Source of the DNA: Amphiscolops sp. MND2022
Taxonomy: Eukaryota
NCBI GenBank assembly: GCA_964187785.1
Contig: OZ076409.1
Location: 52,516,001-52,580,000, forward strand
Length of the DNA: 64,000 bases
Direction: 5' to 3'
Part shown: positions 20,650 to 55,412 of the stretch, piece after piece
Layout of the letters: each line of letters opens with the position of its first letter
Position numbering within the stretch: position 1 is the first letter of the stretch
Translations under genes and position numbers: made by a program
Notes under the pieces: model-generated
What the model was told of the DNA's origin: nothing
Seen by the model: only the letters and a program-made list of their open reading frames with translations
Databases searched by the model: none

Positions 20650-21048
20650 AGAAAAAGCACTTCAAGCTGTCATTAAGCACATCAACAGACTTGATAACAC
20701 GCACACTCAGTGGACTCATTCAAAATCATCCACTAACACTCAAACAGCAGCACTACTAGGTGAATCAAAAAAACAAAAGGTACAAAAATTTTTGACCTCT
20801 CAAAGTTTCAGTTATTTATGAACAAAGTTTCACAACATATTCGAACGATGCTGTCAATCATTCAAGTTGGCAACTTTACTTCGAAGCGAAAAACTTTTCA
20901 CGCAATAAAAGTGAGAACGAAACAACTGGTCAAATGTCTAGACTTTTTATGATGGTTCTAACCATGCTTAGTTTGGATATGCGATTATGTAAGAGGAGGT
21001 TCAGTCTAATTGACTGACAGAAAAATTGAAGGATTCTCAGTCTGTTGT

Positions 21049-25992: not shown

Positions 25993-28237
25993 TGTCGAAC
26001 CCTACTCTGTGGGTCGGCTTTGAAGAACTTTGCGATGTCGAAGGTAAGTTATTTTCGTCATTTTTACTAATAACTGCCATTAATAAGTTCTTCAGTTGAC
26101 TAAATTCGCTTTGTAACTCATTTATCTTCTTCTCATAGTTCTCTCTTATTTCAGACAACTGGGACGAGATATCTGAAGTTTCGTTGTTGTCAGAGTCATT
26201 GGCGGATGACTGAGCCATGTCTGGATCTATTGGCGAAGATGTTCCTGACGAGGAATGTATGAATCTACCGCTTCTAAGTTCGGTACCTTGGTCTGGATTC
26301 ATGTATTCGAGAGAAAAGAATTATGAGTGAAGACTGAATTATCTGAGATGTTGTTTCAATGTATTTCGCTGATTTAACTGAATATTCAATCTCAAATTCA
26401 CTAATCTGAAACTGAGATGTTTTAGAAAGAAGTCGTACAAATAAGTAAGCAGTTAGATAAGGAGAAGGGAACTAGCAAGTTATTCAGGAGAAGTTCATCC
26501 AATTTTCATCACAGTAGTAGATGTACCAAGGAAATTACTCAGTTCAAATTCTTCAATTTCTGACGATGAAATAGAGATGTATTTTTTGACTTTCGCGTGT
26601 TAAAATATCCAACTGGTCGGTAGCTTGTCGCAATTCGGGCTGAGTAATCTTTTATGGCGGTCCAAATTACAGCAGTTCACGTGTCTTTTCGGTTGGTAAG
26701 ACGCTAAATCTCTTACCAACCTACTCTCATTGGCTGTTACCAGCTGGTGCTAAAATGGTAAGTCACGTGACCAGTGTTGTGAACTGCCGCAAAGTGGCTA
26801 CGCACCATGGTACATCTACATGTGTTAATGGTGTTTAGTCATCAATTTACAATGTCGCAATTGCCTGCACATAACATCATGGTTTCTATAGCAACTAAAA
26901 TGGACTCAAATCATTCAATAACGCACTAATTTCAATCAAATTTAAGGTAAAGCACACTTTGGGATGGGAAAACGATGTTTTCCGCTGATTCTAGCGCCAA
27001 AATCAATGATTTAAAACTTGAAGATGGAAATGCGATGAACTTGTAAGAATATTTGCTGATTTCCAAGTCTAGTTTTGCTCTGGATGAAAATGCGATGAAT
27101 GGTAGTCTTTCTCGTTCGGAAATCAACACAATTCAAACTGACGATGATAAAAGGATGAACTTCATGCATAATTTGCCAATTTCCAGCACAGATTCAAATG
27201 ACGATGAATTCGGGATGAATTCAGTCGATAAACGCTAATTCTAGTACATGAGAATTTTAGCGATGAGTTTAGGATGAACTTGTCAGTTAAAACAGCAAAT
27301 ACCAAAGCAATACAAATTGGCGATGAGTTTAGGATGAACTCACCAGTTAAAACACCGAATACTAAAGCAATTGGATTTAGCGATGAGTTTAGGATGAACT
27401 CACCCACTAAAATGGTTAATTTTCAGCACAAACGATATCAAGATTAATTAAGGATGGGTTTACTAAACAAATCAGATAACCAGCACTTTCACTCTTTTTA
27501 GGATGAATTAAGGATGTACTTTCTCATTTCCCTTCTGTACTAGTGAACGCGATGAATAAAGGATGAACTACCGTTCTTTAGAAATGAGAAGCACATTCAG
27601 GAATTACTAAATGAAATAATCACGATGAATTAAAGATGAGTTTTACTAGAATAAGTCCCATAAAATCCGCTGATGGATTTATGTTGAAAGTCAGTTTAAA
27701 GTCCCATGTTTTGTTCACTCGCAAATTTTAAGGATGGGATTGCGATGAACTTTGGTTAAAAGCACCGTTGAATCCGCTGATGGATCCAATTGAAATTCCT
27801 GATCAGGTCAAGATCGTCATCAAATACGACGATGAATTCGTGATGAATTTAATGGAATTTGTCACAACTACATACTCTGAGGCGGGGAGTTAGTAGAAGT
27901 TATACTTTCCATTACTTCCAATATTCCTCGGCCCAGTCTGACCGGAAAACTTCTCTCCCTTATCGTGACAAACCAATATTTACGAAATATAGCACTTTCA
28001 AGGCCAGATTCTGGCAAGATCATTTATGCGGACACCGGAACTAGAGCGCTCAGTATTAAGTAAATATATATATCTCACACTCAAAGGGGGAAGGGATTAA
28101 AGTACAAGTAACGTAGGGTTGCTCACAACCATGGCCCTTATTATATGACATCATATTGCCCATATCTAAGTACATAAGACATATTATTTACATTACAGAT
28201 ATTTAGTAGATTACATTTCCATCATGCTGGCATGACA
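25993..28237 (-). repeat. 3' LTR (2245 bp)
   Basis: Preceded on the minus strand by PPT GGGGAG. Differs from the 5' LTR by one extra 60-bp unit (about 27341-27400), two 1-bp indels and roughly 17 substitutions counted by eye. Confidence 0.95.
26963..27845 (+). repeat. Diverged ~60-bp tandem array in which only GATG-N7-GATG is conserved (copy in 5' LTR at about 44013-44835)
   Basis: Dyads start at 26963, 27023, 27083, 27143, 27203, 27262, 27322, 27382, 27502, 27551, 27624, 27733 and 27831. Confidence 0.9.
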
Positions 28238-28243
28238 CTCCCC
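28238..28243 (-). promoter_or_regulatory. Polypurine tract (short)
   Basis: GGGGAG immediately before the TGTCATG start of the 3' LTR on the minus strand. Confidence 0.7.
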
Positions 28244-29369
28244 GTGGTGGGATTTGGATTGAGAGTGCAGGGGCCAAATGTGCAGAGGATGGTTGTCTCG
28301 GCGTTGGCTTCGACTGCTTCCTTCGTTTGGTTGGGGCGAAAATGGCCTTCGTTAGTTCTGAATTTGCATGTCCTTCGTTTGTTCCGTCCTATGCAAATCT
28401 TCTCTGAGAAGAGGACTTTCGGCAATCGTCATGTCTAGTTTTATTCTGGGTGATTTCGGTTAAATATTATCGACGCGGCAACTCTGGTTCTTGGTCCATC
28501 GAATGTCCGCTGATCTGCATTTTATTGGTTGTCATGCTTTTGATGGGAGTTTCGGCTGGTTATTTTCGGTAGAAGCTGATTTCTCGGAGAAAAGTTTCCC
28601 TCCAAAACGCCTACACTGAATAAACAATTCGACTAACTTTATTGACAAATTGGCAGCGAGTCGGGGATGAATGAACGATGAATTGTTTACACAGCGAGGC
28701 ATTGATGTTGATTTAGCAGACGACTGGCGCCGTTGCTTTGCTATCAGCTTCCGTGATGAGAAAGAGATGAGTCGTTGCCATAGTAACCATTGAAGCTACT
28801 TCCGCTGTCTGAAATCTCAGCGATGAGAAAGAGATGGCCTGTTGCCATAGCAATCACTGCTAATTCTGATTGGTTGAAAACTGAATTTTCCGAGCTGAAA
28901 GAAATCCAACCGGTTGTCAACAAGTATTCTCATCCTTGAATCATCTTCCGTCAAGTCGGTTTGAAAATCGCCACGATTTCCTCTGCGCGTTTCCGCTCAA
29001 CTTCATCGGTATTGATCTGAGACTGGCAGCTGTCATCAAAATCAAATACTTGAAGCTGTCAAATTCTGGGGGGTGATTCATTTTCAGAGAAAATTGTCAA
29101 GTTGGTTGAACTAGGAAGGAAAGTGTAGGCAGTCATTGAAATCGGAGAGTTTTTCATCGATTTTCCATCTTCTGAATTTCAAGTATTTGGTTTGTCTTGG
29201 CACTCAAGCTGCATCCGCGCTCTTTGAGATTTTCCGCGAATTTGTATCCCGCAATCATGGTTGATCAGGCCATTTAATTACTGATCAAATTCTTGTCACC
29301 AGATTCTTCGATTTCGTTCCTTCCTCACTCTCTTCCGTTCCTTTTCAGATTGCTTTGCAAATTACAGTG

Positions 29370-32300
29370 ATGTCTGACATCCATTTCGTTCATTCTCTTC
29401 CAGAGACCGAAGCTACAGAAAGTAAGTGCACCATTTTCTTTTCTTTCACAAACGGGTCGGGGAACAATTAGGTGTTGAAAACGCGTCTTGGCTTTTTAGC
29501 GGACTCAGTTCAATCTGTCGGTGTCGTCTCTGAGCTGACCACTTTGCAAAACGTGCCGCCCCAAGAGGCTCCCGAAGCTCAAGCAGCAGCTCCTGAGCTT
29601 CAGTTTCAACCTGACCAACCGTTTGGTCAGGCTTCCAATGTCCCGTATCTTCCGCAGTGTAAGTTCTGTCCCTCCAGATCTTCAATTCAGTCCACAATCT
29701 CTTCATTTCTCATCTTTGGTCCCTTCAGACGTTGACTCTTTCCGTTTGATGTTTAGATCACTATCCTTGGCATGCCTCCCTCGGTAGCATCACCTTCGAG
29801 TGGTATGATCGCCACATGCGGGACATGCTACGAGATAGCATCCAGCAGTACAGTGAGTTGACTCCTTTTCACATTTCCGTCTGTACTAAGGTATCGTCCG
29901 GACACTCCGATGTAATTCCGATGTAAACATCTCATCTGCATGTAGTGCCCTTCACGGTCGATTACCTATAAGATTCATTTTTAAAGATGAATTTGGGATG
30001 CGTCATGGACATTCACCGTCCTTTCGTGGCTAATCCGTTTCCGAATTCCATTTTGAGGGTGAAATTTTTGGTGACTTCGTTTCCTGTTTTCTTTCTTCGC
30101 GCGGCGTACGCGCACTCTCTTCATCATCTGTCGTCGTCTGATTTCTGTTTTCTTCTTTCAGGCCCGACTCCTATCCACGCCCCAAGGCCTCGCCCTATTA
30201 CGTATTCCGTGGGTATAGGAACGAGCGACTTTGGTGCAACACAGGTTGACGCTGCTACCCAAGGAGGGCCTTCTTCCCTGGAGATGTCCTCGTTCTTCCA
30301 GGACTTGTCTCTGGGCGCGATCAGCTCCCCTGTGGCACGTGCCCCAGTGTCGGTGCTCTCGCCAAGCTTTCAGCGATTTCTGGATCGTGAATCAACACCT
30401 CAAAGTCCTCCTCCTCCTGTTCGTATCACCGTAGAGACAGGAGTCAGTGCCGTCGTCACTCCTGTGGATGTGGCGGTCGATGCCTGCGTGGCTGTTGCTG
30501 ATCAGTCTGTTCAGGCCGTTGTGGAAACTGGCGAGACATCCACAGAATATGATCCTCCCGTGGACACCCTTCCGGCTGCTCCTTCTTCGCCAGCTGTTAG
30601 CGTCTCTGGAACTTTGGAGGCTGACGTTGAGCGGTCTGACGTGCCATCAACCGACAGCACTGATACCCTACTAGAGGCAGTCGAGAATGTCCCTGTTGGT
30701 GATCCTCTGTCTGCAGAGCCTGCTCCAGAAGGTGCTGTTCCTGGCCTGGTTCCTGTGTCTGCTGAGACGTCTCCCATGGGACCCAGTCTCGTGGACTCCG
30801 ACGACGAGCCCATTGCGTCTCGCTTGCCAGGTTACCTAAACATCTTTAACTCTGTGAAGTATTTGATCGGTAACTTTTATTCATTTCCTTTCATTTCCAC
30901 TTTCACCAGTGTTTTTCTCGTCTTTCTTCTTTTCCATCTATTTTCCATCGTTTTTCTGTTTTTCATATGATTTTCTGCAGTTTTTTCATTTCCCATCACT
31001 TTCTCATCCTTAAAAGTCTTGAGTATAGCGTTTTCTTCTCTGATCATTTTTTAGAACTTTCCACCTCTCTTACATCCTTAAATTTTTCTTGCTCGGTTTA
31101 GCCATTTTTGTCGTTTTCTTTTCAGTTTACATCTCTTTTTCATCGTTAAGTCATTTTCGTTCTAAAATATCTCAATTTTGGTTCAACGTTGTTCTATACA
31201 TCTCTTTTTCATCGTTCTAGGCTTTCGTCTTTTAAAGTTTCAATTTTCTGTCCTGGTGGCTTGTAAACACATCTCTTTTTCATCTTTTCGTTTTTTCTTC
31301 GTTTTTCGCTTATATTTCCAATGAAAATATTATTTTACATCATGTTTTCATCACTCCGGGTGAGTTTTTTGTTTTTTTTGAAATGTTCGGTTGGTTTTCT
31401 ATTTTTCGGTATTCTAGGATGTGTAGAGGATGGGGTTAACATTTTTCGTTGTTCTTTTGATATCAGGAAGGAAAATTCTCAAGTCAGCGTGGTTTAACCA
31501 TGCTTATTGTGGATTGGCGCTCGGCTTCCCGAAGGATCACCTTACGCGCGATTCGTACGCGAGATGTCTACTCTGCAGGCAAGATGTCAAGATCGGTAGC
31601 CGCGGGATAACAACCTTCTTTGAACACTGCCGGGGAGGAGTCAGACACCACCGGCTGGACTGTCTGACGCGATTGCGACGGGGCCTACCGCTGCGCAGAC
31701 GAGATGGGACACTGATGTCCCAAGCCGAGGCAGACATGTGTGGTGCCGCACTAAGTGGTGAGTCAGTACCGTTGATTGAGACGTGTCCAGATGTGACTGT
31801 TCTGGAGGCACTGCAGATCGAGGCGAGTGATGGTTCAGTGTGGGGCACAAGGCGAGTCGCAGAGGATGACGACCACACTGACAGTTTTCGATTGTTCGTG
31901 TGTCTAGTGATTGATGCGATCTATCGGGACTGTAATTTTGCAAGTGTGCGACATCTTTGGGACCTGATGGTTGCCTCCAATTCGCAGCATGCTGTCATGT
32001 TTGGCGCGACTTGTCGAGAATCCGACGTTCTGGTTATTATGAATCTTTTCCGGATGCATGAAATAATTACATGTTGCATGTATTGTTATTTGTATGTTAC
32101 ATGTGAAACTTCCGATAATTTTGGGGTATTTGTATGAAAATTTTTATTTTTTGTTAAAAACTACAAGGTTGGGGTGTGTGTTAATTGAGTGGTCAGTAGG
32201 TAACTATATGAGAATTTAAAATGATGATTGTAGGATGAATGTATGGTCTTGTTTTAGAGCGTTGTTCTACTTGGACTCTGGCCGTTTGTGATGAGACGAG

Positions 32301-34147
32301 TAATTTGTGCGTGGTCCGAAACAGAATTCAGCAGTTTCGGTGTGACATTAGTGGCGGACAGAGTGGTGGGCACGCTGAATGTATGTACCTCGGAAGGGCC
32401 TGCGAACTATGTGGTCTTTTCATTTGCTTATGGACAAGAGTGGGAGCAGCGAGTGGTCTCGTGGGCTGTCAATGTGTTGTGTTGCGCTGTGGGGCAATTG
32501 GCACCTGTTGGCCTCAATTGTCGATTGTTGTCTGGGCTGGAAAGAGTGTTGGTCAGTCGCTCTGGACCAAGGACAGTCTCACTTGTGTCGTTAAAACTTA
32601 CCGAGCTAAACAAGCGTCTGGTGGATGCGAGCATTCGTGTGATGGGCGGGACAGATGTACATACGATATTGAACCATTTGCAATCAAGGCTAAAAGAATT
32701 CGTCCAGGACCCAATCATTTTAGCTTGTCCAAAGCTCTTGCAGGTAACTATTTGTTATTTTTCGATTATTTTTCACTCATGTTGATGTGTCGATTTTTTG
32801 GGGGTGATGCTTTTCGTGGTTGTATCATGTGTAATTTAGGAATTTTTTATTTTTATAAGTTCTTGTTTGTTATAGTGCGTGTTAGATGGAGAGGTAACCC
32901 TCTGGGACGTACCGGACGTGTTGGCTGAGTTATCCGAGAATTGGGCAGAGGTCTCGGATCTGTTGAGAGTGCCTAGTGGATCCGGCGTCATTGAGTCTTT
33001 GGACTTTGAGCTGTGTGGGGATCGTGCTATCCCTTTCCGTTTGCAGGCCTTAGCTAGTGTCTTTCGTGCACGTATGTATGTTTTTTGTTTTCTTGGTGCA
33101 TATCGTTTCGTTATTTACAGTGTCTTAATTTAATAAAAGATATTTGGTTGGGGAATCGAGTAGAGAGCGTGTGACTTGACTATGCTTTTTTTGCAATAAT
33201 TTTTGTTGTTTTCAGTCGTCGATTCATATCGCTGGAGCTTCAGCAGTTGTCCATTGAGGAGTTTCCATTGGGCGTACGAGAGTGCGTGTTTTGTGCACGC
33301 AATCTTAGTCAAGCTGATAGACGACGATGACCTGCCTAGTGTGACCGAGGTGCGGGCTTGCTTGGAAGTGGACGTGGACAATTTGACTGTGTCATATGCC
33401 AAGTTGCGAATCATGAGGGAGGAATTTGGTCCCTACTTAGGGCAAGTTGCAGAAGCTGCCGTAATTGATGAGCACTTGGCGATGGTGCAAAGCTTCATGT
33501 TTGTAGTGGTTGAAGACATTCTAGCTGCTCCCGGAATGAAAGAAGAAGTGACATATCATTTGAGTGTGGGTTGCCCTGCTCTTTTGTTGCGTGGTGAAAT
33601 TGACGTGTTACGAAATGAAGCTGAACAATTTACTGGATTGCTCCTGGATCTGGGGAGGATAGGACTCGCTGAGAAGAGACGGATGGATGGGAGCTTCGTC
33701 TCATTCGTGACCAACTTCAGGCAGAATGCAGTTGATATGTCCGTAGACAGTGCAAGTTCAGCAGTGGACATTTTGCGGGCATGTGAGAGTTCATCGTGTC
33801 AACGCTTCTTCCGTTTCTTGATGTGTCTGGGTGAGACACCTGTATTCCCAGCAGGTATCAGTTGCGTAAGCGTGGGAGGGTTGAGCAGTGATGTCACGAC
33901 AAGTGTTTGCTCAAGTATTCTAAGTTATTTGAGGACGCATTCCATCAGACAGTTCGAAACTGTGAGTGGGCCGTTACTGGAGGAGGTTACGGAGTCAATT
34001 GGTCATTTCACAGCTTTAGCCGATTTGAAAGAAGAGATGCTGTGGGATGATGTAGGAGTAGTCGCGGATGAAGAATACCGTCAGTCGTTGTACGATGCGA
34101 TCGGATTTACAGCTGCTGGAGAGCGCGCAGCTAGCCCTGAGGTTTAG
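29370..34147 (+). CDS. Predicted 8-exon antisense accessory gene of the retrotransposon, ~1051 aa, with acidic/Pro-rich N-terminus, BED/hAT-type zinc finger and a possibly hAT-transposase-derived C-terminal body
   Basis: Exons 29370-29421, 29500-29658, 29757-29852, 30162-30830, 31467-32032, 32258-32743, 32876-33071, 33216-34147. All seven introns are GT-AG and phase-compatible; total 3156 nt with no internal stop. Zinc finger: CLLCRQDVKIGSRGITTFFEHCRGGVRH. Confidence 0.8.
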
Positions 34148-34409
34148 AAATGACTTGCTGTTTATTATTATTTTTTTGAAGCTGTTTGTATCTTTCATGT
34201 TATTTTATATTACTGTATGTTATAGTATTGTATCTAGCAAATGGGTGACCAATTGAACGAATTTACAGGGGGGGAGAACAACAGATGCTACGTCGGAAAG
34301 GTCGGTAGCGTAGATATATACATATTTAGTGTTTGGCACCCGAAATTTGTTTTTCTCTTGAGACATTTTTAGGTGAGGATAGGGATAGGTTAGATTTGCG
34401 GATAGTTTT

Positions 34410-34788
34410 CATCGCTTTCTCATCACATTTTATTTTCGCGCGTTTTAGATAACTTTTATTACGGTGTTCATCGTTATTACATCTCGTGTAGGTGTGGGTA
34501 ATTCATCAGTGTTTCATTGTGATGTCTCATCTCATTTTCATCTTGTTTTCCTCAGTCGACCGAGCGACGTCGCGAAAACTGTTTTCTCATCTTTTTTACA
34601 TCTTTCGTTGTGTGGAAATCATTGGATGTTGTTTCACGTGTTTTTCTGCAAAGTTCATCGTTTTTTCATCTTGCGTTTTCATTTGATCATTTTGGCGAGT
34701 TATTTGCTGTAGTTCATCGTTTTTGCATCGCAAGTTTTGACTTGTCGAATTTTGCTCATTTTGCTGCATAGTTCATCTTCTTTTCATC
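34410..34788 (-). repeat. CATC-N7-CATC array (~60-bp period)
   Basis: Dyads at 34410, 34469, 34528, 34588, 34656, 34715 and 34774. Confidence 0.88.
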
Positions 34789-36180
34789 GTAATTTTGGAA
34801 AATATTTATCTTGCGTGTTTTTCGTGTTTATTTTACTATAACGTGATCGAGAGTTGCATTTTTCATGGTAGATGAGGGTATTTTATCAATTTTGCGGTAT
34901 TTTGGGAGTGTTTTCTTCATGTATTTTAGTGTCATATGGTGTTGATCGTTTGTTAGGTTGTTGAAATTGCATGAAATTTAGTGTACATGTGTTATACTCA
35001 TTTTCGTTGCGTTTCGGATTTGTCATAGTTTGAACATTATTGCATGAATCATTTTTCAGACTCTTGTGACTGCCGCTTGCGTGGCAGTCGAAGAGATGTT
35101 CACTCAGCAATGGTATTGGAACCCCGTAGGCGTGCAAGGTACTTGAGGTACCAATCCAAAGCTGGGTGAGTGGAGCTGCTCCGCTCCATTCAGATGAATG
35201 AAATCTCTCAGTTTTGAGCTATATATAGTCTTCATGTTATTTTTACGGTCGGTTGTTTGTCATCAGACGTCGAAATGGGTTTGTCCATTTGACATTTAAT
35301 CTGATCAATCAAGGTGATTGACATCTACGGCTTTGCATGTTTCGAATTATTAAGTTTTGTGATATTGTGTGGTTTCATGTTTGCGTGTTTTCATAATGTA
35401 TTCCTTTAAATGGGTTGCCCCATTATCGACATGTTGTTATATGTCCGGTGTTAGTTTCATGTATTTTAATTTGGTGTTTTATTTTCGTTCATTTGGACAG
35501 GGCTTTGTCGTCACAAAGCCCCTACAAAACTAACTGAGAATCCACTAGCCGCTGGATAACCAACGCAGCAAGCTTCATCCGAATATGGTTGTGAGCTCCC
35601 CGCATCAACTAACCAGCACTCTTTTCAGAGAAATGCCAGCCAGCACGAAGGAATGTTTTTGGCTTTTCGATAGGGGTATTTTGTTTGTTATGAACTGATG
35701 TTTACTGGGGGGTGCTCACTCCTTTATTCGTTTTGTGGGTGTTTCGTCAGTTCTTATATTTTGCATGTAAGTTAGTAGGCTTCATGTATTTTCGATTGTT
35801 CGTTTCATTTTTATTCGTCTAGGTTTGGATGGCTTTGGTGTGAATTGCATATATTATCTCGTTCATTTTTAAACGGTACATGTATATTTCCGTGTGTTGC
35901 TCATTTGAATTGCATGTAGTTTGGAGTTGTCAATTTCTTTCGTGACGTCATTGATTTGGCAGGTCTTTGAACCGTACATGTATTGATCGTTTCATTTTTG
36001 TGTCGCATAATTCTATTTGCTTGATTCGAAATAAAGTCGGCTGTGTTTTATCGTTTCGTGGAGTTACATGTTGTTTGAGAATTAGCTGATTTATTGTGAT
36101 GTTATGTTGATGGTGTTTCCCATCACAAGGAGGTTTTGGTAAGTCATTTAATATTTTCGAATTTCCATTTAGACTAAATT

Positions 36181-36715
36181 CATCGTTTTGACATCCTCCA
36201 GCGAAGCTAGAGTATTGTGTCAGGCTAACGATAAATTCGGTCACGATTTGATGGTAGTGTCCATCACAAATTCATCTCGTTAATTGATTTCATGTAATTT
36301 CTGAATAATTGGATCGAGTTCATCGCTATTTCATCCTCTAGCCGAGCTAGAGTATTATGATAGCATGAACGTGAGTGCGTTCGCATTCTGATGGTATTTT
36401 CCATCTCAAATGCATCGCTAGTAAATATTGCATGTTGATTGGTCGAATTTTTGACTGAGTTCATCACTTTTTCATCTCTCGTGTGTCTGGGATAAATTTT
36501 CATGTGATTTCATCCTTTTTTCATCTCAAATTTTTGTGTGTTGTTTTTTCTGGGTTTTTGGTCGTTTTTCATCCGTTTTACATCGTGTTTTGTTTTTATG
36601 CGTTTTTCATGCGATTTTTAGTAACTTTTCATCCATTTTACATCTTCATGTTCATTTTAAATTGAAATTGCATGTAATTGACTCGTTTTTGTGAATTGTT
36701 CATCTTTAACACATC
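36181..36715 (-). repeat. CATC-N7-CATC array downstream of pol
   Basis: Dyads at 36181, 36262, 36321, 36402, 36463, 36511, 36570, 36630 and 36701. Confidence 0.88.
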
Positions 36716-36743
36716 GTGTGTTTTGAAATGTTGTTTTTCTTGG

Positions 36744-38072
36744 CTAACTCGTTACGTTTACTTTGTTGGTCTTTCTCAGAGAGTTTCTGGCTGATGTAAT
36801 CTCATGAATAAGGAAGTCAGGATATTTTTTCGGTGTAGGGTTCTCGCGTAACCTGTACCTACTCTGATTGTTTCTAGACGGTCTAGAACTCATCCTTTCC
36901 TCATCTTCAGTTTGCGTGTTTGTCTGTTGTGACTGATTTTCGTGTTGTTCGTCTCTCAGAGGTACTCTTATCCTACTTTCATCGCGGGGGGGCGGTAGAA
37001 TAATTTCTTCTTGCGTTCCAAATCTAACTGTAGGTGGTCTAAAGTTGTTGTGGTCAGTTTCTACTTGCTGATAATCTATTCTCGTGGTTATTTCTGGTGG
37101 AATAACTTGTGGACTGTGTTGTTCTTGTACTTGCGGAATTATTTCTTCTGAAGGCTCTTCTTCGACTAAGTCTTGATCTAGATTGTCATTCTCATTCTGA
37201 TCTACTTCGTCGGTCGTCGGAATGTTCGAGTCGAAAATGTCCGTGTCTTCAACCCTTTCAGTGTCTGGGTAGAGATGTTTGGACACGTTGATGTCATCAA
37301 TCGGGAATTCCGGTTTAAACAATCTCAGTCGCATGCGATGTACGCACTGAGTTTGGTGTGTGCCTACTTTGCGGATGATGTAGTTGCTATCGGATAGCAC
37401 TTTCATCACCTTGTACGGTCCTTTCCAATGGAAAGTTTTAAACTCTTCTTTGCTTCTCTGAGAGTCGTATTTAGGATCTAGTAGGAACACAAATTCATTC
37501 ACCTTCAGTGGCTGTGCTCGTGCTTTTCTATCATAGTACGTTTTGTACTTATGATAGGCGGAAATGATGTTATCTAGATTGTCTCTGAAGATGAAGTTCA
37601 TTTTGTCTAGAATTTCGTTCACGTCCTTGCACTTTGTTTCAGCCGGTTTGTTTGCGTTTCGGAATTGCAGATCTAGTGGGTTGTATGGTGTTCTTCCGTG
37701 GAAAATTTCAGTTGGTGAACATTTCAGTGAATCATGATACGTTGTGTTATGGGCCATGATTGCTATGTCGACATAGCGGTCACATTGTGGTCGGTCTGCG
37801 TTTACACTAATTTTAAGGATCTTTTTCAGTTTCGCGTGCGTTCTCTCTACCATGCCTATTGTCTGTGCGTGCTTTATCGTGGCATGGGAGATGTGAATAT
37901 CAGCCGCTTTCGCGATTTCAGACAGAAGTTCAGCCGTAAACGCCGTGCCCTTGTCCGTCAGAATGTGCTTGGGCACATACGCGTGTTTCGTGAAGATCGA
38001 CAGTAATCCTCTGACTACGGAATGTGTATCAGGTCTCTTCAGCGGAACGGCGAACAGGTAGCGTGAAAAAAC
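36744..38072 (-). CDS. pol: Remainder of integrase (core DDE and C-terminal tail), separated from pol by an 8-nt frameshifting insertion
   Basis: Frame continues VFSRYLFAVPL...ILTDKGTAF...VERTH...WKGPY. Removing GGCGCGGC (38073-38080) restores AVDVFSRY. Confidence 0.9.
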   Translation of the reverse strand, partial: VFSRYLFAVPLKRPDTHSVVRGLLSIFTKHAYVPKHILTDKGTAFTAELLSEIAKAADIHISHATIKHAQTIGMVERTHAKLKKILKISVNADRPQCDRYVDIAIMAHNTTYHDSLKCSPTEIFHGRTPYNPLDLQFRNANKPAETKCKDVNEILDKMNFIFRDNLDNIISAYHKYKTYYDRKARAQPLKVNEFVFLLDPKYDSQRSKEEFKTFHWKGPYKVMKVLSDSNYIIRKVGTHQTQCVHRMRLRLFKPEFPIDDINVSKHLYPDTERVEDTDIFDSNIPTTDEVDQNENDNLDQDLVEEEPSEEIIPQVQEQHSPQVIPPEITTRIDYQQVETDHNNFRPPTVRFGTQEEIILPPPRDESRIRVPLRDEQHENQSQQTNTQTEDEERMSSRPSRNNQSRYRLRENPTPKKYPDFLIHEITSARNSLRKTNKVNVTS

Positions 38073-41000
38073 GCCGCGCCGTCAACAGCCGTCAGAATGT
38101 GTGTGAAACCGTTCGACGCCGGGAGTGGACCAACGATGTCTATTTCCAACAGGTCTTCTGGTCCGTCGCACGGGTCGTAGATTTTTTGTAACGGTGGACG
38201 TAGTTGCGTTTCTTTTACACTTTTAGATTTCATGCAGTTTTCACATCCGTCAAGGACTTTTTGAACTTTACAGGCTAAGTTAGGAGAGTAATATCTTTTA
38301 CGAAGTTCGTACAACATTTTCTTTAAACCAGGGTGTCCTTGTACCGGGCTGTTATGTAGAGTCCTAATTATTTTCAAAATACAGTCTTCAGGAACAACTA
38401 ACTGCTTGTGAGACTCCAGTCCCGTGTGATCAAAAAACTGTCTGTACAAGACACCGTTTACAACTTGTAGGCGTTTTCGATTTTTGTGCAACTTTTGAAA
38501 AAACTGATCTTGCATATTAACTGGGTGTTGCAAAATTTCAGTACCTTCTAAAAATCTAATCATTTTTTGAATAACCCAGTTATTTTTCTGGACCTGAATT
38601 AGATCGATCCCCTCAGCGGGGCTAACCTGACTCATTACCGGGTGTGATAATGATACTTTACGGATGAATTGCGAGAGTTGAATCGGCTCGTCCACGTCTG
38701 TGAGGCGGTACGTCAGATGGTTGTCAGTCGCGAAGTCATCTGAGGCCGCTGTTCTCTCACAGTTGGTGAACTTCATCCCTTTCCCATCGTCATGAGCCAC
38801 GTCAGTGCCAGTTGCCAATTTCATCTCTTTGACATCCTTCTGGCGTTTGCATCTGAGTGGTTCGCTCGTGGGAAAGTAATCAGGCTCGTCTTCCTCCTGT
38901 TTTGGTGTACGGGAGGCGATGTCGATCTCGATTCTGTGAATTGGAATAGTATCAGTCAATTTTAAATGTACACGGTCTTCAGGTCTAATCTCAAGCCGAG
39001 ATAAGTAATCCGCTGCGGGATTTTCAACTCCTGGAACATGTGCTAATAAAAAATTGAACTGAAGGGTTTGATCGCAAAAATTCCAAAGTGAAGGCGGGAT
39101 ATGCTTCGCCTGAATAAATCTAGTCAAGGCCTTATTGTCAGTCATAACAATGATGGGTTTTTTCGCACCCCACAAAATGTGGCCAAATTCATCGAAGGCA
39201 AAGTGCATAGCTAAAAACTCTTTGGCATACATTGTTAGAGACATCTGGCCGCCCTGAAATTTGTTAGAGCCAAATGCAACAGGGGCGTATGTTTGTTTGA
39301 CTGACGGGTCAGCATAATCCTCAATTAACAAAACATAGCCGGCAGCGTGTTCGCTGGCGTCACACATGATTACCAATTGTTTATCAGGTAATGGCAATTT
39401 CAGGGACACTTTTGTTGCTTTTAACAAACTTTCATTGATTTCAAAAATAGCATCTTTATGTTGTTGATTCAGTTTGAAAGGGACGTCCTTCTTGATCAAC
39501 TCCTGTAAACAACAAGTTTTATCAGCTAGGCGGGGAATATAAGACCTGTAAAAGTTTACAAAACCAAGATAACGTTGCAACGCTTTCACTGAGTTGGGGG
39601 GTTTCAATTTGGTCAGATAGTCAGTTACTCGTTTCTCAATGGGAGCAATACCGGTGCTAGAAATTGTTTTTCCCAAGTACTCAATTTGCTTTTGTCCAAA
39701 TTCACAATTACTCATGCTAAGTTTAAGACCAGCTTTGTTCAACTGCTGAAAAACAAGTTCAAGGTTATTAATCAGTTCGTCAGGGGTGTGTGCTGCAATT
39801 CCGATGTCATCAACATATTGAGCACATCGGTCCGCTTTGACCAGGGGGTCCAAATACTCACGGACTACACTTGTGAATGCTGACAAAGAACGATTAAGGC
39901 CCTGTGCTAGGCGTAAAAAGGCAAAAGTTCTAGAACCAAAATTAAACGATAACAGTTGGACAGACTGCTCATCGGCCATTGGGATGCAATGGTAGGCCTG
40001 GGAACAATCAAGTATACAGAAGTACTTTTTCCCGGCCATATGTTGGGCAGCGTCAGCAATTGTTGTTACGGGATGGTTGTGTTCACCGTAATCGTTTTTG
40101 ATCAAGTGGTTTATTCTTCTCAAGTCAACTAAAATCCTCAATTTACTATTAGGTTTACGTTGAGCGAATATCGGAGATGAGTATTTGCTATGAGGCAAAG
40201 TAGTTATGATCCCGTACTCTTGCATTAAGGCTAACTCCACGAGCAAATCGTCCTTCAAATTTGTCGGAGTAGGGAGACTTTGTGAATAAACAGGTTCTTC
40301 ATGTTGGGGTGTTAGCTTAACTTTAAAATCAGTGTTCATGCCAATATCAAAACGATGTCTAGCAAAAATGGAGTTGTACTTTACCAGCAACTCCTCTACC
40401 TGTAACCGTTGAGACGTAACCGTAGTAAGAAGCGAGTCGTCCCAGTTGAAGTTCTTCAGGAAGTTCATCCGTTGTTCATCGGATTGGGACGGGTCAAGCT
40501 TCTCGAGCTCTCGCAGTGCCAGAATCTCATCATAGATTCGTCGCTCAATTGCGTTGAGTTTGTCTGGCTCACTGCACGTCTCGGGAGTTGGGTACCACTT
40601 AGTTGACTTCATTTCAGGGTTCACGAACAGTTGGTTGATCACTGCTTCCGCCTCATCTGGGTACTTGGTGATCAGGTTCAAGTGTTCGACTGGCATGGGT
40701 GTGATGTTTGCCGCCTGATGTGGTGTCGATATGCGAAAGTGTGCCAGAGTGGTGTTGGCATCGAGTGTGAACGTGTGGTTGTTCGGGTTGGTGACCTGGA
40801 TTGTCGTCTTGCCCTCGTCTAGGTCAACCAAAGCTGGGGAAACAAGCAAACACGTCTTTCGCATGAATCCAGGTGAGCCCTCAACTGTACCAGTTGTAAG
40901 TGGGATGTCCGCGTCACTGTGGACCTGTATCATCACTTGATGGAGAGGAGGGATCACTGTTCTAGTACTGGAACACAAATCAATTAAACCAGTTTTGAAT

Positions 41001-41851
41001 CTGTTGTTCTTTTGCTGTCTAACTTGCATGGACATCATGTGATTAGGGAAGTGAACAAGGTGGTTTTTTATGTCTAAGTTGACTGAGTACTTTTCAAAGA
41101 ATGACATTCCAATTAAATTTGTGCCCATTGTTGGAAGGATTAGGAACGTTTCTTCAAAGACTTTTCCAGCAACGTAAAATCTAAGTAAGACTTGCTTACG
41201 CACTGGGACTAAGTTCCCGTTTGCTATTTGAATTTTGAAATTCGGAGGGGGGAGTTCTTGAAGGATGGCTTCTGGATGAGCCGTTGTTATTTTTCGCAAT
41301 TCTGCTTCAGACATTGCGCTTTGAATTGCGCCTGTGTCTAACAGTGCATGATTTTCGTATTTATCAAACTGAAGAGGGACGTACAGCATTTTATCTTTCT
41401 TGTTTAAATGTAAAGTGGGACTAAGAACGTGAATTTCTGTTTTAGTTGCATGTTTGTTAGCTTTTGAAATGTTAGTACTACTATATTTTGCATGTTTTTT
41501 AATACTAAGCCGTTTGTCGATTATTGAGTATGAAGTCGAGTCGTCGTCTAGATGGTTGGTGTCCATCTCTTTGGCATCGTCCACCTGCCTCATGGTGTTT
41601 TGTTGCCAGTTCATCGTTTGTTCATCGTTGATTTCAGCGAGTGGAGAAAAGCGGCTGCCGTTGCGTTGACGTGCATTTCCCATCGCTTTTTCATCGTTGG
41701 AAAGTCTTCGCTGATAGACGTCGTCAGCTTTTGGTCGTTTGTCCAGTGAAGGCTGCCATTTCTTCATTGGACGGTTGTGTGTAGTCGGTTGAGTCGAAAG
41801 TCGTTTGTCGCGCGTTGTATTTCTAGCGGGCGGAAATCGTGGCTGAATCAA
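38039..41851 (-). CDS. pol: Pol: aspartic protease, reverse transcriptase, RNase H, N-terminal integrase (in -1 frame relative to gag)
   Basis: LLDTGA (PR); LDCSQAY and YVDD (RT); IMCDAS and NPAADYLSR (RH); HNSPVQGH...CENC (IN zinc finger); IDIVGPLP (first catalytic Asp). Confidence 0.95.
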   Translation of the reverse strand: MIQPRFPPARNTTRDKRLSTQPTTHNRPMKKWQPSLDKRPKADDVYQRRLSNDEKAMGNARQRNGSRFSPLAEINDEQTMNWQQNTMRQVDDAKEMDTNHLDDDSTSYSIIDKRLSIKKHAKYSSTNISKANKHATKTEIHVLSPTLHLNKKDKMLYVPLQFDKYENHALLDTGAIQSAMSEAELRKITTAHPEAILQELPPPNFKIQIANGNLVPVRKQVLLRFYVAGKVFEETFLILPTMGTNLIGMSFFEKYSVNLDIKNHLVHFPNHMMSMQVRQQKNNRFKTGLIDLCSSTRTVIPPLHQVMIQVHSDADIPLTTGTVEGSPGFMRKTCLLVSPALVDLDEGKTTIQVTNPNNHTFTLDANTTLAHFRISTPHQAANITPMPVEHLNLITKYPDEAEAVINQLFVNPEMKSTKWYPTPETCSEPDKLNAIERRIYDEILALRELEKLDPSQSDEQRMNFLKNFNWDDSLLTTVTSQRLQVEELLVKYNSIFARHRFDIGMNTDFKVKLTPQHEEPVYSQSLPTPTNLKDDLLVELALMQEYGIITTLPHSKYSSPIFAQRKPNSKLRILVDLRRINHLIKNDYGEHNHPVTTIADAAQHMAGKKYFCILDCSQAYHCIPMADEQSVQLLSFNFGSRTFAFLRLAQGLNRSLSAFTSVVREYLDPLVKADRCAQYVDDIGIAAHTPDELINNLELVFQQLNKAGLKLSMSNCEFGQKQIEYLGKTISSTGIAPIEKRVTDYLTKLKPPNSVKALQRYLGFVNFYRSYIPRLADKTCCLQELIKKDVPFKLNQQHKDAIFEINESLLKATKVSLKLPLPDKQLVIMCDASEHAAGYVLLIEDYADPSVKQTYAPVAFGSNKFQGGQMSLTMYAKEFLAMHFAFDEFGHILWGAKKPIIVMTDNKALTRFIQAKHIPPSLWNFCDQTLQFNFLLAHVPGVENPAADYLSRLEIRPEDRVHLKLTDTIPIHRIEIDIASRTPKQEEDEPDYFPTSEPLRCKRQKDVKEMKLATGTDVAHDDGKGMKFTNCERTAASDDFATDNHLTYRLTDVDEPIQLSQFIRKVSLSHPVMSQVSPAEGIDLIQVQKNNWVIQKMIRFLEGTEILQHPVNMQDQFFQKLHKNRKRLQVVNGVLYRQFFDHTGLESHKQLVVPEDCILKIIRTLHNSPVQGHPGLKKMLYELRKRYYSPNLACKVQKVLDGCENCMKSKSVKETQLRPPLQKIYDPCDGPEDLLEIDIVGPLPASNGFTHILTAVDGAAFFHATCSPFR

Positions 41852-43353
41852 AAACCCTGGTTAATGTCTTCATCAGAGTAGCTTAGTTGTTCGTCGTCCT
41901 CAGTAATTGCTTGCATTGGATTCAACGGCTTTTGCTGTCGTTTTAAATCTTGTCGTCTAGCCTTGTTGTCGTCCTGTGAATTCGTTGTGTATGGAATCTT
42001 TCCATATGCAGAGCTGCTTTCCTTGGGAATGCGTCGTCTGCAGTCTCTTGCAGAGTGGCCGGTGTATCCACAAATCTGGCAAACCAGCTTGGGATTGTAC
42101 TTCGGTTTGTCTGGGTCGGTTGCTTTCTTCATCGGAATTGCATCTTCTTTCTTAATGCCGTTTGCTTCGTCACGTTGTCGGGCGCGACATTCCGTTTTGC
42201 GGTGACCTGTCTTTCCGCAGTAGAAGCATTGTCCCTCAAATCGTTTTCGTTCTGTCGGTTGCGTTGTCGTTGTTGTTGCTGGTTTAATCGTTGTGTTGGT
42301 CGTTGGGACCGAGGAGGTGACCGCGTTAAATGGTTGAATTGCCGTTGGTGGCGCAACGTACTGTTGGTACTGGTACTTTCTCATCAAGTATGTCTTGATT
42401 TCTTCTGGTGAGCTCTCCTCCTTATTGGCCATCGTAAGTTCTTGTTGTATTTCGACTGGGAGTTTACCGAACAAGAACATTTTGATGATTTTATCCGCTT
42501 CTTCCCCAAATGCTTGTTTCGCAATCTTTTTCAAGTTTTTGAGGAAGTCGCTGAATGTTTCTGTGGTGGGATCGTAACGGGCTTGATCCCATTTGTATCG
42601 AGCTACTTCTTTAAGGTCCTCTTTCGCGAATTCTTTCCTGAAGAGGTCGAGTACATCTTTCAGCGTTGTTAGTGGCGTTATCTGGATGGATTGCCAGTAC
42701 TCTATTGCATCATCTCTCAAAAGGCTTTGAAAGAAGTGGAGTTTGTTCTCTTCGGTGATTTTGTTGGCGAGCGGGCTAAGGTGGTTAAGGAGAAGGTGCT
42801 CGAATTCCACGAATTTGTCTTTTTGGCCTCTGAAATTTGGGACGTGTGTCTGTAGTAGTTTCGTGTTGGTGGTGGTGCTTTTGATTCGTTGGGGGATCGT
42901 CTCGATTGCATTGAGTAGTCGTTCCTCATTGCTTCTAGGAGTTGATTCACCTTCTTCGTCCGAGTCGTCTTCCTGGAATCGCCTGAAGTTTGTGAAGCTG
43001 GATGTCGGGCGGGTGGAGCGGGTTTCTGTAACTCCTGTCACCATGTCGAACCCTACTCTGTGGGTCGGCTTTGAAGAACTTTGCGATGTCGAAGGTAAGT
43101 TATTTTCGTCATTTTTACTAATAACTGCCATTAATAAGTTCTTCAGTTGACTAAATTCGCTTTGTAACTCATTTATCTTCTTCTCATAGTTCACTCTTAT
43201 TTCAGACAACTGGGACGAGATATCTGAAGTTTCGTTGTTGTCAGAGTCATTGGCGGATGACTGAGCCATGTCTGGATCTATTGGCGAAGATGTTCCTGAC
43301 GAGGAATGTATGACTCTACCGCTTCTAAGTTCGGTACCTTGGTCTGGATTCAT
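41848..43353 (-). CDS. gag: Gag (coiled-coil N-terminus, capsid-like region, two CCHC zinc knuckles)
   Basis: 501-aa ORF with CFYCGKTGHRKTEC and CQICGYTGHSARDC. It starts inside the 5' LTR and reads through the PBS. Confidence 0.95.
   Translation of the reverse strand: MNPDQGTELRSGRVIHSSSGTSSPIDPDMAQSSANDSDNNETSDISSQLSEIRVNYEKKINELQSEFSQLKNLLMAVISKNDENNLPSTSQSSSKPTHRVGFDMVTGVTETRSTRPTSSFTNFRRFQEDDSDEEGESTPRSNEERLLNAIETIPQRIKSTTTNTKLLQTHVPNFRGQKDKFVEFEHLLLNHLSPLANKITEENKLHFFQSLLRDDAIEYWQSIQITPLTTLKDVLDLFRKEFAKEDLKEVARYKWDQARYDPTTETFSDFLKNLKKIAKQAFGEEADKIIKMFLFGKLPVEIQQELTMANKEESSPEEIKTYLMRKYQYQQYVAPPTAIQPFNAVTSSVPTTNTTIKPATTTTTQPTERKRFEGQCFYCGKTGHRKTECRARQRDEANGIKKEDAIPMKKATDPDKPKYNPKLVCQICGYTGHSARDCRRRIPKESSSAYGKIPYTTNSQDDNKARRQDLKRQQKPLNPMQAITEDDEQLSYSDEDINQGF
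41851..41857 (-). promoter_or_regulatory. -1 ribosomal frameshift slippery site G GGU UUU
   Basis: CAG GGT TTT TGA ends gag. The heptamer fits X XXY YYZ, and pol is open in the -1 frame (TTG ATT CAG...). Confidence 0.8.
43031..43043 (-). promoter_or_regulatory. Primer binding site, tRNA-Leu-like
   Basis: TGGTGACAGGAGT abuts the LTR end and matches 12/13 nt of the complement of a typical eukaryotic tRNA-Leu(CAG) 3' end (TGGTGTCAGGAGT). Confidence 0.75.
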
Positions 43354-45226
43354 GTATTCGAGAGAAAGAATTATGAGTGAAGACTGAATTATCTGAGATG
43401 TTGTTTCAATGTATTTTGCTGATTTAACTGAATATTCAATCTCAAATTCACTAATCTGAAACTGAGATGTTTTAGAAAGAAGTCGTACAAATAAGTAAGC
43501 AGTTAGATAAGGAGAAGGGAACTAGCAAGTTATTCAGGAGAAGTTCATCCAATTTTCATCACAGTAGTAGATGTACCAAGGAAATTACTCAGTTCAAATT
43601 CTTCAATTTCTGACGATGAAATAGAGATGTATTTTTTGACTTTCGCGTGTTAAAATATCCAACTGGTCGGTAGCTTGTCGCAATTCGGGCTGAGTAATCT
43701 TTTATGGCGGTCCAAATTACAGCAGTTCACGTGTCTTTTCGGTTGGTAAGACGCTAAATCTCTTACCAACCTACTCTCATTGGCTGTTACCAGCTGGTGC
43801 TAAAATGGTAAGTCACGTGACCAGTGTTGTGAACTGCCGCAAAGTGGCTACGCACCATGGTACATCTACATGTGTTAATGGTGTTTAGTCATCAATTTAC
43901 AATGTCGCAATTGCCTGCACATAACATCATGGTTTCTATAGCAACTAAAATGGACTCAAATCATTCAATAACGCACTAATTTCAATCAAATTTAAGGTAA
44001 AGCACACTTTGGGATGGGAAAACGATGTTTTCCGCTGATTCTAGCGCCAAAATCAATGATTTAAAACTTGAAGATGGAAATGCGATGAACTTGTAAGAAT
44101 ATTTGCTGATTTCCAAGTCTAGTTTTGCTCTGGATGAAAATGCGATGAATGGTAGTCTTTCTCGTTCGGAAATCAACACAATTCAAACTGACGATGATAA
44201 AAGGATGAACTCCATGCATAATTTGCCAATTTCCAGCACAGATTCAAATGACGATGAATTCGGGATGAATTCAGTCGATAAACGCTAATTCTAGTACATG
44301 AGAATTTTAGCGATGAGTTTAGGATGAACTTGTCAGTTAAAACAGCAAATACCAAAGCAATACAAATTGGCGATGAGTTTAGGATGAACTCACCCACTAA
44401 AATGGTTAATTTTCAGCACAAACGATATCAAGATGAATTAAGGATGGGTTTACTAAACAAATCAGATAACTAGCACTTTCACTCTTTTTAGGATGAATTA
44501 AGGATGTACTTTCTCATTTCCCTTCTGTACTAGTGAACGCGATGAATAAAGGATGAACTACCGTTCTTTAGAAATGAGAAGCACACTCAGGAAATACTAA
44601 AAGAAATAATCACGATGAATTAAAGATGAGTTTTACTAGAATAAGTCCCATAAAATCCGCTGATGGATTTATGATGAAAGTCAATTTAAAGTCCCATGTT
44701 TTGTTCACTCGCAAATTTTAAGGATGGGATTGCGATGAACTTTGGTTAAAAGCACCGTTGAATCCGCTGATGGATCCAATTGAAATTCCTGATCAGGTCA
44801 ACATCGTCATCAAATACGACGATGAATTCGTGATGAATTTAATGGAATTTGTCACAACTACATACTCTGAGGCGGGGAGTTAGTAGAAGTTATACTTTCC
44901 ATTACTTCCAATATTCCTCGGTCCAGTCTGACCGGAAAACTTCTCTCCTTATCGTGACAAACCAATATTTACGAAATATAGCTCTTTCAAGGCCAGATTC
45001 TGGCAAGATCATTTATGCGGACACCGGAACTAGAGCGCTCAGTATTAAGTAAATATATATATCTCACACTCAAAGGGGGATGGGATTAAAGTACAAGCAA
45101 CGTAGGGTTGCTCACAACCATGGCCCTTATTATATGACATCATATTGCCCATATCTAAGTACATAAGACATAATATTTACATTACAGATATTTAGTAGAT
45201 TACATTTCCATCATGCTGGCATGACA
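43044..45226 (-). repeat. 5' LTR (2183 bp), contains the first 103 codons of gag
   Basis: Minus strand reads TGTCATGCC...GGGTTCGACA, followed directly by the TGG PBS. Matches 25993-28237. Confidence 0.95.
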
Positions 45227-54066: not shown

Positions 54067-55412
54067 TTTTTTAGCAGTTTTTGAATGGTTGGCTATTAGA
54101 TCTCAAGCTTTGAATCTAAGGAAAGCTGCTGGTCGGGGAAATTGAAATCGAAAGAATGGCGATTTTCCTCTCCGACGGCTCGCGAAAATTCTACCCAACT
54201 CCGTTTTGTTTTTCCCGGGGTTTAAGTTCCACTTTCTAAGTGATTTCTCAATAACAAAACTTTTCTTGTACATCAGCTTTGAACCCGCCGCTGAGTCCTC
54301 TCTGATAATGACGACTGCAGCATTGTAGACATTCATCATTTTTATCAATACTTGCAATGCTGAAGCATCGTGATGTGATGAGTGTTTATTAACACTCATC
54401 AACTACTTGGAGGTTTCAGGTGGTGAAGATACGACTGAAAGCCTCGCTGTCTCGCTCTTCGTGAGGCAGCCAATGAAATCGCAAAACTTTCTTTTCCCAC
54501 AAAATGGCGTTCTAAAGCCAAAAGTCCCTATAATGAATTCAAAAAATGACCTTGAAAATAGGATAAAATGGAATAATAATGGTGAAATGATAAAATAATA
54601 ATAAAATATTAGACTAATTGCATAAAATAACAAAGTTTTCGAAATAAGTAACATAATGTAGATATTGCTGGCAGACTCTATCCACATATTGACATAAATC
54701 CCAAAGAACTGTGAAATTTGACACCAAATTATAAAGCCACGAACCCCAATCTTGACAACTTGTTAAATTGCCGATTCGCCATTTCAGTTCTTCACATTCA
54801 ATTTTTCATCGTAGTTTTCCGTTTTATTCAGTATTTAACTGTCATTAGTAGTCATTTTCATTGTATTTAGACTATAGGCAATTTCTGGTTTTGAATTATA
54901 TTTACTTTTATTTCTCTTTATCTCTTCATCTTGGAACATCCTGTCTAGTTATCCCTATCTTCTTGGATATCCCGGGATCCCCTGGATTGTAGACATCCAG
55001 TACACAAACAGCAAATTATTACTCCAAGTATTCCCTCTTTCTTCTGGTACAGAAAGGTCGAGTTCCGTCTGTATCCACTCATACCAGCTTCCCACTTACA
55101 GCAGCCTTCAACTGGACTCAACATTCACTGGACAGCAATCCTAGCGATACATACTCACCAAACCTTGTTCTGTCCGTCTGCGTCTCCTTCAGGTTAGACT
55201 CCTTTGAGGCTCATTCTCTGATTGAGGTGCATTTTCATTTTAGAACTAAAAGAAGTCTGATCAGGGCTTTCATTTGGTTCACGTACTTCCTGTCCACTAA
55301 CACAAGTCTTCACTTATGTTCAAATTCTCTAATAACGGAAGATTTTCAAACGCGGTAAATGGATTCATATTCAGGAAGGTTCCCGCTTGAGTCTATTCAT
55401 TTCTATTTAGAC

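Follow-up and report, generated by a model that had tools for sequence, protein, structure and literature searches.

In the window (the whole 64-kb stretch of DNA that was analyzed), a complete Ty3/Gypsy element was found to carry, on the strand opposite gag-pol, an eight-exon gene in which purifying selection acts on both the coding frame and the splice sites. LTR retrotransposons are usually viewed as gag-pol(-env) elements with no space for ordinary spliced genes. The comparisons presented here pointed to an ancient accessory gene belonging to a clade of Gypsy elements.

Anatomy of the host element

The element extended from 45226 to 25993 on the minus strand, with a total length of 19.2 kb and an internal part of 14.8 kb. 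It showed the set of features by which Ty3/Gypsy elements are recognized, namely two TG..CA LTRs, a target duplication in the 4-6 bp range, gag followed by PR-RT-RH-INT, a primer-binding site and a polypurine tract:

25993..28237, minus strand: 3' LTR, 2245 bp, TG..CA ends
near 28065, in the 3' LTR (minus strand): TATA-like TATATATA, about 170 bp from the LTR's internal edge
28238..28250, minus strand: short polypurine tract adjoining the 3' LTR, read from the sequence
36744..41860, minus strand: pol, in the order protease, weak dUTPase-like stretch, RT, RNase H, integrase
41848..43521, minus strand: gag frame with two CCHC knuckles
43020..43043, minus strand: primer-binding site, beginning TGG, read from the sequence
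43044..45226, minus strand: 5' LTR, TG..CA ends

Copies of the 5-bp target duplication ATTTG flanked the element at 25988-25992 and 45227-45231. The LTR pair differed by 17 mismatches in 2183 aligned columns and by gaps totalling 62 columns, mostly one 60-bp unit. The gag frame started inside the 5' LTR and read through the primer-binding site. In pol, the dUTPase-like stretch was a weak match (E 0.027), and the frame of the window copy was broken within the integrase region. A preliminary description of this DNA had called the element giant. The label did not hold, because the available text of PMC6431247 sets the threshold at an internal region of >20 kb.

Exon-intron structure of the antisense gene

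The gene was located between integrase and the 3' LTR. Its eight plus-strand exons comprised 1051 codons and a stop, with no internal stop, and were separated by seven GT..AG introns with phases 1,1,1,1,0,0,1. The same structure had been proposed in the preliminary description (eight ORF blocks joined through phase-matched introns into an antisense protein of about 1051 aa) and was re-derived here from the sequence as a predicted product:

29335..29369, plus strand: probable 5'-UTR acceptor region, TTTCAG 21 nt upstream of the ATG, in 20 of 20 aligned copies
29370..29421, plus strand: exon 1, carrying the ATG
29500..29658, plus strand: exon 2, Pro/Gln/Glu-rich
29757..29852, plus strand: exon 3, a 32-aa block, the best-conserved N-terminal part, also present in the tandem paralogue
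30162..30830, plus strand: exon 4, acidic, Ser/Thr/Pro-rich, variable in length, probably disordered
30831..31466, plus strand: intron 4, 636 nt, CATC-rich, cassette-exchange switch point of the window copy
31467..32032, plus strand: exon 5, C2H2 finger with beta-hairpin and helix, then a helical domain
32258..32743, plus strand: exon 6, hydrophobic strands alternating with helices, resembling RNase H on visual inspection only, CxxH not conserved
32876..33071, plus strand: exon 7, with E694 and W699 the same in all of 15 aligned rows and W686 in nearly all
33216..34147, plus strand: exon 8, all-helical model, stop codon at its end

The GC content was 42-58% in the exons and 28-32% in introns 4-7, which were T-rich. 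The four longest plus-strand frames (332, 315, 236 and 229 aa) were matched by none of 500 resampled sequences, in which the fourth-longest frame averaged 91 aa. The donors of introns 4 (GTTACC) and 5 (GTTATT) were weak yet conserved among copies. We infer splicing of the seven introns from sequence and conservation. The acceptor upstream of the ATG probably marks a 5'-UTR intron; no donor matching the acceptor at 29335..29369 was found.

Selection and distribution among genomic copies

The genome searched comprised 1.07 Gb in 1929 contigs, and the first look returned 1841 candidate loci with exon 8 and 2125 with exon 5. For alignment of the gene region, 20 copies covering 60-92% exon-8 identity were picked from the gene side. 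The splice dinucleotides were kept at 271 of 280 sites in these copies, compared with 1393 of 3380 (41%) for the other intronic GT/AG used as a control. Three of the nine missing dinucleotides were due to a deletion and one was GC. The lengths of exons 6, 7 and 8 were almost constant. Four copies were stop-free through all eight exons, one of these without the terminal stop codon; 14 copies carried stops or frameshifts, and in 2 more a start or stop codon or a splice site was gone. Judged from the sequences, the lesions in the remaining copies are those expected of ageing insertions.

The dN/dS ratio was calculated by the Nei-Gojobori method for pairs with 0.3<dS<2. The medians were 0.22 for residues 1-325 (178 pairs), 0.13 for exon 5 (49 pairs), 0.16 for exons 6-7 (35 pairs) and 0.12 for exon 8 (50 pairs). 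Four exon-8 off-frames gave 1.1-2.4, and the remaining minus-strand frame gave 0.27. The preliminary description had named dN/dS across copies as a check on the gene, and the range obtained, 0.12-0.22, was far below 1.

In 18 of the 20 copies, the integrase on the opposite strand ended 1.9-2.7 kb past the stop codon of the gene. The other two contained a second, paralogous gene in tandem (exon 5 37-51% and exons 6-8 25-28% identical). Among these copies, sampled from the gene side, the gene thus had the arrangement of an antisense extra ORF (aORF-3R), that is, antisense to gag-pol and between pol and the 3' LTR. Starting from pol instead, 72 other loci whose pol was 98-99% identical were considered, and at least 15 of them had a listed opposite-strand gene match within 10 kb; this figure is a floor, obtained by setting the pol loci against the gene-match lists by eye. 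No inverted repeats bracketed the gene, and the longest inverted match, 18 bp, lay far from its ends. The one-off nested insertion considered in the preliminary description was contradicted by the presence of the gene in sibling elements without TIRs.

Age of the gene and cassette exchange

Two further Gypsy lineages, with pol identities of only 26-67%, also carried homologues of the gene in antisense; one of these lies within the window. The other, P0055, was detected by protein search, is identical to a locus of the genome and has 2246 candidates. At L042, the one locus of this family that was read, the gene had the same four core exons, with phases 1,0,0,1, and was again antisense to pol, whose identity to that of the window element was 48% in integrase and 55-67% in RT-RH. 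The homologue in the window was a remnant:

55400..59000 (approximate), plus strand: decayed gene homologue; the pol to which it is antisense (minus strand, about 59.4-63.2 kb) belongs to a second, distant Gypsy

The pol pieces of this decayed element were 26-63% identical to the first element. The remnant retained, in order, an acidic N-terminus, a finger, and exon-7-like and exon-8-like pieces. Compared with shuffled sequences, the finger and exon-7 pieces exceeded all, and the exon-8 pieces did so only marginally. One piece drew 4835 candidates genome-wide.

Within the first family, synonymous divergence from the window copy was 0.04-0.33 for integrase and 0.14-0.82 for exon 8, and the tree lengths were 0.44 for integrase, 2.81 for exons 1-4 and 2.29 for exons 5-8. 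The window copy itself was a mosaic that switched in intron 4: its exons 1-4, spacer and integrase were nearest to L029, and its exons 5-8 were nearest to L027. These patterns indicated that the gene moves between elements as a cassette and is older by far than the pol of its carriers. The likely cause of the exchange would be template switching during reverse transcription. The preliminary description was right that the gene is element-borne; its term "captured" understated the age of the gene, which is common to three distant Gypsy lineages.

GATGAA motif arrays

The most enriched 6-mer in the LTR was GATGAA/TTCATC (17 copies versus 1.3 expected), and TTCATC was also the most enriched 6-mer in the spacer, where CATGTA was a further enriched word:

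27034..27850, plus strand: GATGAA array in the 3' LTR, mirrored at about 44084-44840 in the 5' LTR
34148..36743, plus strand: non-coding spacer from gene to integrase, 21 TTCATC versus 2.9 expected (GATGAA on the minus strand)

In the LTR array, the motif often took the form of GATGA pairs spaced 11 bp apart, partly within a 60-bp tandem unit. Intron 4 held four copies of GATGAA/TTCATC; the motif was rare in exons and at background level in the flanks. Among sibling elements, it was found in the spacers of 18 of 18 copies and of both paralogue-bearing copies, at roughly 6-12 times expectation. In 15 copies with spacers 69-85% identical to that of the window copy, GATGAA was kept at 218 of 296 sites and CATGTA at 118 of 178, compared with 34% for other 6-mers and 34% for 6-mers 8 nt away. 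These results showed that the arrays are selectively kept.

A short motif that is dense in the non-coding regions of an element and sparse in exons and flanks is the pattern of VANC/TnpA-type systems, and in its available text PMC5735166 describes VANC targets in this way. The arrays also resemble the subterminal repeats of hAT elements, as presented in the accessible part of PMC4763223. The spacer of L042, the sole distant-lineage spacer examined, contained one GATGAA/TTCATC and no array; L042 is the one contrasting lineage, and its finger is different. The conserved arrays lend indirect support to the DNA-binding regulator proposed in the preliminary description.

Features of the predicted protein

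Residues 1-325 were acidic, rich in Pro, Ser and Thr, and almost without basic residues. The finger of the window copy read C359-x2-C362-x16-H379-x6-H386. The C2H2 finger of the preliminary description was confirmed, but its x6 spacing proved particular to the window copy, whose exon 5 is 3 nt longer than in most copies: six of seven other readable stop-free copies had H-x5-H, and in most homologues the second His came five residues after the first. C359, C362, G372 and H379 were at least 90% conserved in 32 homologues, down to 20% identity. Predicted structures covered exon 5 and exon 8. The AlphaFold model of exon 5 (mean pLDDT 88) consisted of a beta-hairpin-plus-helix finger and a helical domain. 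The nearest known finger types, BED (sub-threshold) and matrin/U1, were equally close, and none was significant. The exon-8 model was mostly confident at residues 11-200 and of low confidence past about 200; such a poor tail would fit a segment without its partner domain.

By eye, exons 6-8 run in hAT order, with strands and helices in exon 6, a Trp and amphipathic helix in exon 7, a long helical block and a dimerisation-domain-like tail, an ordering that leans partly on features we take to be those of hAT transposases. The Trp and helix of exon 7 were also compared with the R-W motif of L043. A hAT donor was on hand, because the genome carries many hAT elements (2215 candidates for PF05699). 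On visual comparison, we lean towards regarding the finger-plus-body core as a catalytically dead hAT-transposase derivative. The statistical and fold tests of the hAT origin raised in the preliminary description gave no positive result. The BED matches remained below threshold, the profile comparison with two hAT transposase frames of the genome stayed within shuffle range and gave no register to a hAT, and the exon-8 model matched no transposase fold in the structure libraries. None of 57 exon-8 homologues matched the PF05699 dimerisation domain, for which the corresponding part of the model was of low confidence. No Pfam family was obtained at E<=0.1 for five exon frames, so Transposase_28 (PF04195) was unmatched. 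The CxxH motif, defined in the available text of PMC4763223 as following the second aspartate of hAT transposases, was absent from the exon 6 and exon 7 alignments, and no DDE triad was assignable in the protein; any activity of the protein would thus be that of a binder rather than a transposase.

Env-like ORF3 products are marked by sense orientation, a signal peptide and a C-terminal membrane anchor. The preliminary description had also reported no env-like features, and this was borne out by the antisense orientation, the acidic N-terminus, the single N-glycosylation sequon and the best 19-residue hydropathy windows (1.85), which were internal, at 513 and 197.

Proposed mechanism and alternative explanations

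Introns antisense to the genomic RNA are invisible to the spliceosome in that RNA and for this reason outlast reverse transcription. We assign a probability of about 0.5 to the reading that transcription of the gene begins at the 3' end of integrated copies, that the transcript is spliced, and that its nuclear protein reads the element's own arrays while the acidic tail activates or protects the element. Transcription would start in the 3' LTR or adjacent leader and yield a separate spliced mRNA, as for HTLV-1 hbz and maize Grande gene23; the TATA-like sequence near 28065 and the conserved acceptor just ahead of the ATG are compatible with initiation inside the 3' LTR, as for hbz in the available text of PMC10186651. 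The C2H2 finger would bind the short GATGAA motifs in LTR, intron 4 and spacer, motif density would confer family specificity, and the acidic disordered N-terminus would recruit transcription or chromatin factors. The likeliest effect would be activation of the element or countering of host silencing, as with VANC/TnpA in plant DNA transposons. A broader scenario, which we put forward only tentatively, is that a Gypsy radiation domesticated a hAT transposase once, long ago, as a multi-intron antisense anti-silencing or trans-activating factor reading its own LTR arrays, with finger and motif co-evolving by lineage and the gene swapped as a specificity cassette.

Selection on GATGAA says nothing of its binder; the same pattern would arise if a host factor bound the motif or if it had a role in RNA. 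An accessory factor working on RNA (Rev/Rex-like export, splicing control, packaging or translation) would use a matrin/U1-type finger, and the arrays would be RNA elements of the 5' leader and of the 3' internal region that might pair with each other; we consider this rather unlikely. A self-limiting, HBZ-like DNA-binding repressor, or an antisense transcript damping gag-pol, would limit copy number. Acidic N-termini such as that of this protein more often activate, and the family is young and has a great many members, with 73 loci scored at 98-100% pol identity. Such restraint is therefore unlikely, even though the anatomy is that of HBZ and APH-3/4, spliced antisense 3'-LTR products that restrain sense expression according to the available part of PMC10186651.

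Arrays in both LTRs would also suit an integration helper, a dead transposase that binds element cDNA through them and either assists its passage into the nucleus or anchors the pre-integration complex on chromatin. Such a role has been proposed for plant antisense ORFs (PMC7264820, available text), and hAT transposases bind their ends specifically through short subterminal repeats and a BED finger (PMC4763223, accessible part). However, the distance between the arrays and the LTR ends is 0.4-1.2 kb, further arrays occur within the element, and a protein made from a separate antisense mRNA would have no obvious route into the particle, so we give this reading little weight. A host-directed protein, such as a silencing-factor decoy or inhibitor or a drive or incompatibility factor, with the arrays serving a host transcription factor, would explain the deeply diverged alleles on nearly identical pol, the cassette swaps evident from the tree lengths, as in conflict systems, and the tandem paralogues. 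The dN/dS values indicated strong constraint rather than rapid adaptive change, and in the single contrasting lineage, whose finger is of another type, the motif is not the same; we regard this explanation as quite improbable. A passenger without function for the element, either a one-off nested DNA transposon or a recently captured host gene, would be in keeping with the many damaged copies. It is highly improbable given purifying selection, the fixed position and orientation in three lineages and the lack of any inverted repeat >18 bp bracketing the gene, and was ruled out by splice-site conservation in the 20 copies and the low dN/dS.

Relation to known systems

The comparisons below refer to the parts of the cited papers that were available. 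Both plants and fungi are known to have elements with an extra ORF in antisense between pol and the 3' LTR (PMC7264820, PMC11963269). The plant Retand/Grande/RIRE2 and fungal Boty elements share with the window element a Gypsy origin, an antisense gene between pol and the 3' LTR in most copies, and repeats in the same region, and a nuclear or DNA-binding regulatory role has been proposed for their genes as for ours (PMC7264820, PMC11963269). Those genes are described as ORFs, mostly TRP28/PF04195, the word "intron" being absent from the available text of PMC11963269, and PMC7264820 reports that such ORFs lack similarity to other transposons. The window gene, in contrast, is split by seven introns and comprises 1051 codons; its product has a C2H2 finger, and no Pfam family matched it. 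Spliced antisense genes of LTR retroelements are likewise present in HTLV-1 (hbz) and HTLV-2/3/4 (aph), where they are 3'-end-driven and encode nuclear regulators, as predicted for the window gene; they are small, bZIP-type, retroviral and overlap sense genes, whereas the window gene is large, multi-exon, non-overlapping and carried by an env-less retrotransposon (PMC10186651).

VANC (VANDAL) and TnpA (Spm) are element-encoded accessory proteins with conserved and variable parts, and their short motifs crowd the introns, spacers and termini of the element, some of them as tandem repeats (PMC5735166; bioRxiv 10.64898/2026.08.24.746577), and TnpA derives from a transposase (bioRxiv 10.64898/2026.08.24.746577). 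They belong to plant DNA transposons, and their binding and demethylation have been demonstrated, whereas the window gene is retrotransposon-borne and encodes a protein unrelated in sequence whose binding is predicted. The main text of bioRxiv 10.64898/2026.08.24.746577 does not contain "retrotransposon", "LTR" or "Gypsy". The hAT transposases (Hermes, Kat1) and ZBED proteins share with the product of the window gene an N-terminal C2H2 finger with BED-like spacing followed by about 600 residues; the window gene differs in its extra 325-residue acidic N-terminus and in having no conserved CxxH, assignable DDE, TIRs or Pfam/profile match. Planarian Burro (PMC6431247) and bdelloid ORF3 elements (PMC5408684) are Gypsy-like with added coding capacity, and the bdelloid elements have a dUTPase between PR and RT (PMC5408684), to which the weak stretch in the window element corresponds. 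Their extras are env-like, enzymatic or polyprotein domains, and no antisense spliced gene is described in the available text of either paper.

In the literature searched, no description of a multi-intron antisense zinc-finger gene in Gypsy elements was found; Repbase entries, subscription papers or supplements could hold one. Antisense extra genes as such are already known, and what is new here is a selected, widespread, multi-intron antisense accessory gene in Gypsy. A seven-intron gene is maintained by selection across distant Gypsy lineages of a 1-Gb genome, and annotation may have mistaken thousands of these loci for zinc-finger genes of the host. The candidate path from motif to function is directly testable with one domain, one 6-mer and one LTR reporter. 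If the hAT derivation is true, one transposon class would have domesticated another's enzyme and recruited it as a transcription factor. If the arrays are read by the gene's protein, the logic of VANC/TnpA would operate within a retrotransposon, and an anti-silencing role, if true, could help account for the high copy number of the clade.

Gag and pol of the main element and its neighbours in the window

In the main Ty3/Gypsy element, the gag frame was found to start inside the LTR (window 43044-43521; matching part of the 3' LTR, 25993-26471), with about 107 codons from the first ATG being LTR-encoded. The frame also reads through the primer-binding site, and the 3' LTR therefore holds a truncated gag copy. 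A dUTPase-like stretch was placed between the protease and RT of pol. This stretch and the other features of the window are as follows.

Window 2000-3700: array of degenerate ~180-bp repeats
Window 4300-20700, both orientations: dispersed repeat family (repeats D8, D11, D12 and I1-I9)
Window 5774-7384, plus strand: AAA ATPase gene in one frame, with the Pfam domains AAA and AAA_lid_3
Window 40740-40980 (approximate), minus strand: weak dUTPase-like stretch (Pfam E 0.027, below the cut-off)
Window 53000-64000, pol on the minus strand: second Gypsy element, decayed

The AAA ATPase gene is presumably katanin p60-like. An inverted relative of the ~180-bp array lies near 47817, and the dispersed repeats are possibly the ends of non-autonomous DNA transposons. 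The decayed Gypsy element, whose LTRs were not located, carries a remnant of the antisense gene (~55.4-59.0 kb), apparently intron-poor or intronless.

Conserved motifs of the antisense gene and spacer

Exon 3 of the antisense gene (window 29757-29852) encodes 32 aromatic/His-rich residues, is conserved well above the remainder of the N-terminus and is retained in the paralogue, making it a candidate partner-binding motif. The protein P0063, which falls outside the gene family, has three tandem fingers of similar spacing, with weak zf-BED and ZNF592-like matches.

The word CATGTA was enriched and conserved in the spacers of both lineages (window 34148-36743 and the spacer of L042, the distant Gypsy locus), whereas GATGAA did not share this pattern between the two. 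CATGTA might mark a host-factor or shared site.

Copies with tandem paralogues

Three gene copies elsewhere in the genome (L021, L022 and L041) each comprised two paralogous genes in tandem, with LTR-like fragments between and after them. Integrase was absent from the stretch read beyond the first gene's stop (~13 kb in L021 and L041, 4.5 kb in L022). One further frame was noted.

L041:2514-3812, plus strand: open frame of 433 codons, on the strand opposite to the paralogue

This frame had no Pfam match and was preceded by a GACGAC/TCGTCA-rich stretch. P0089 and P0126 have longest contigs of equal length, which may point to the same tandem arrangement at another place, and the three copies L021, L022 and L041 possibly constitute a non-autonomous subfamily.
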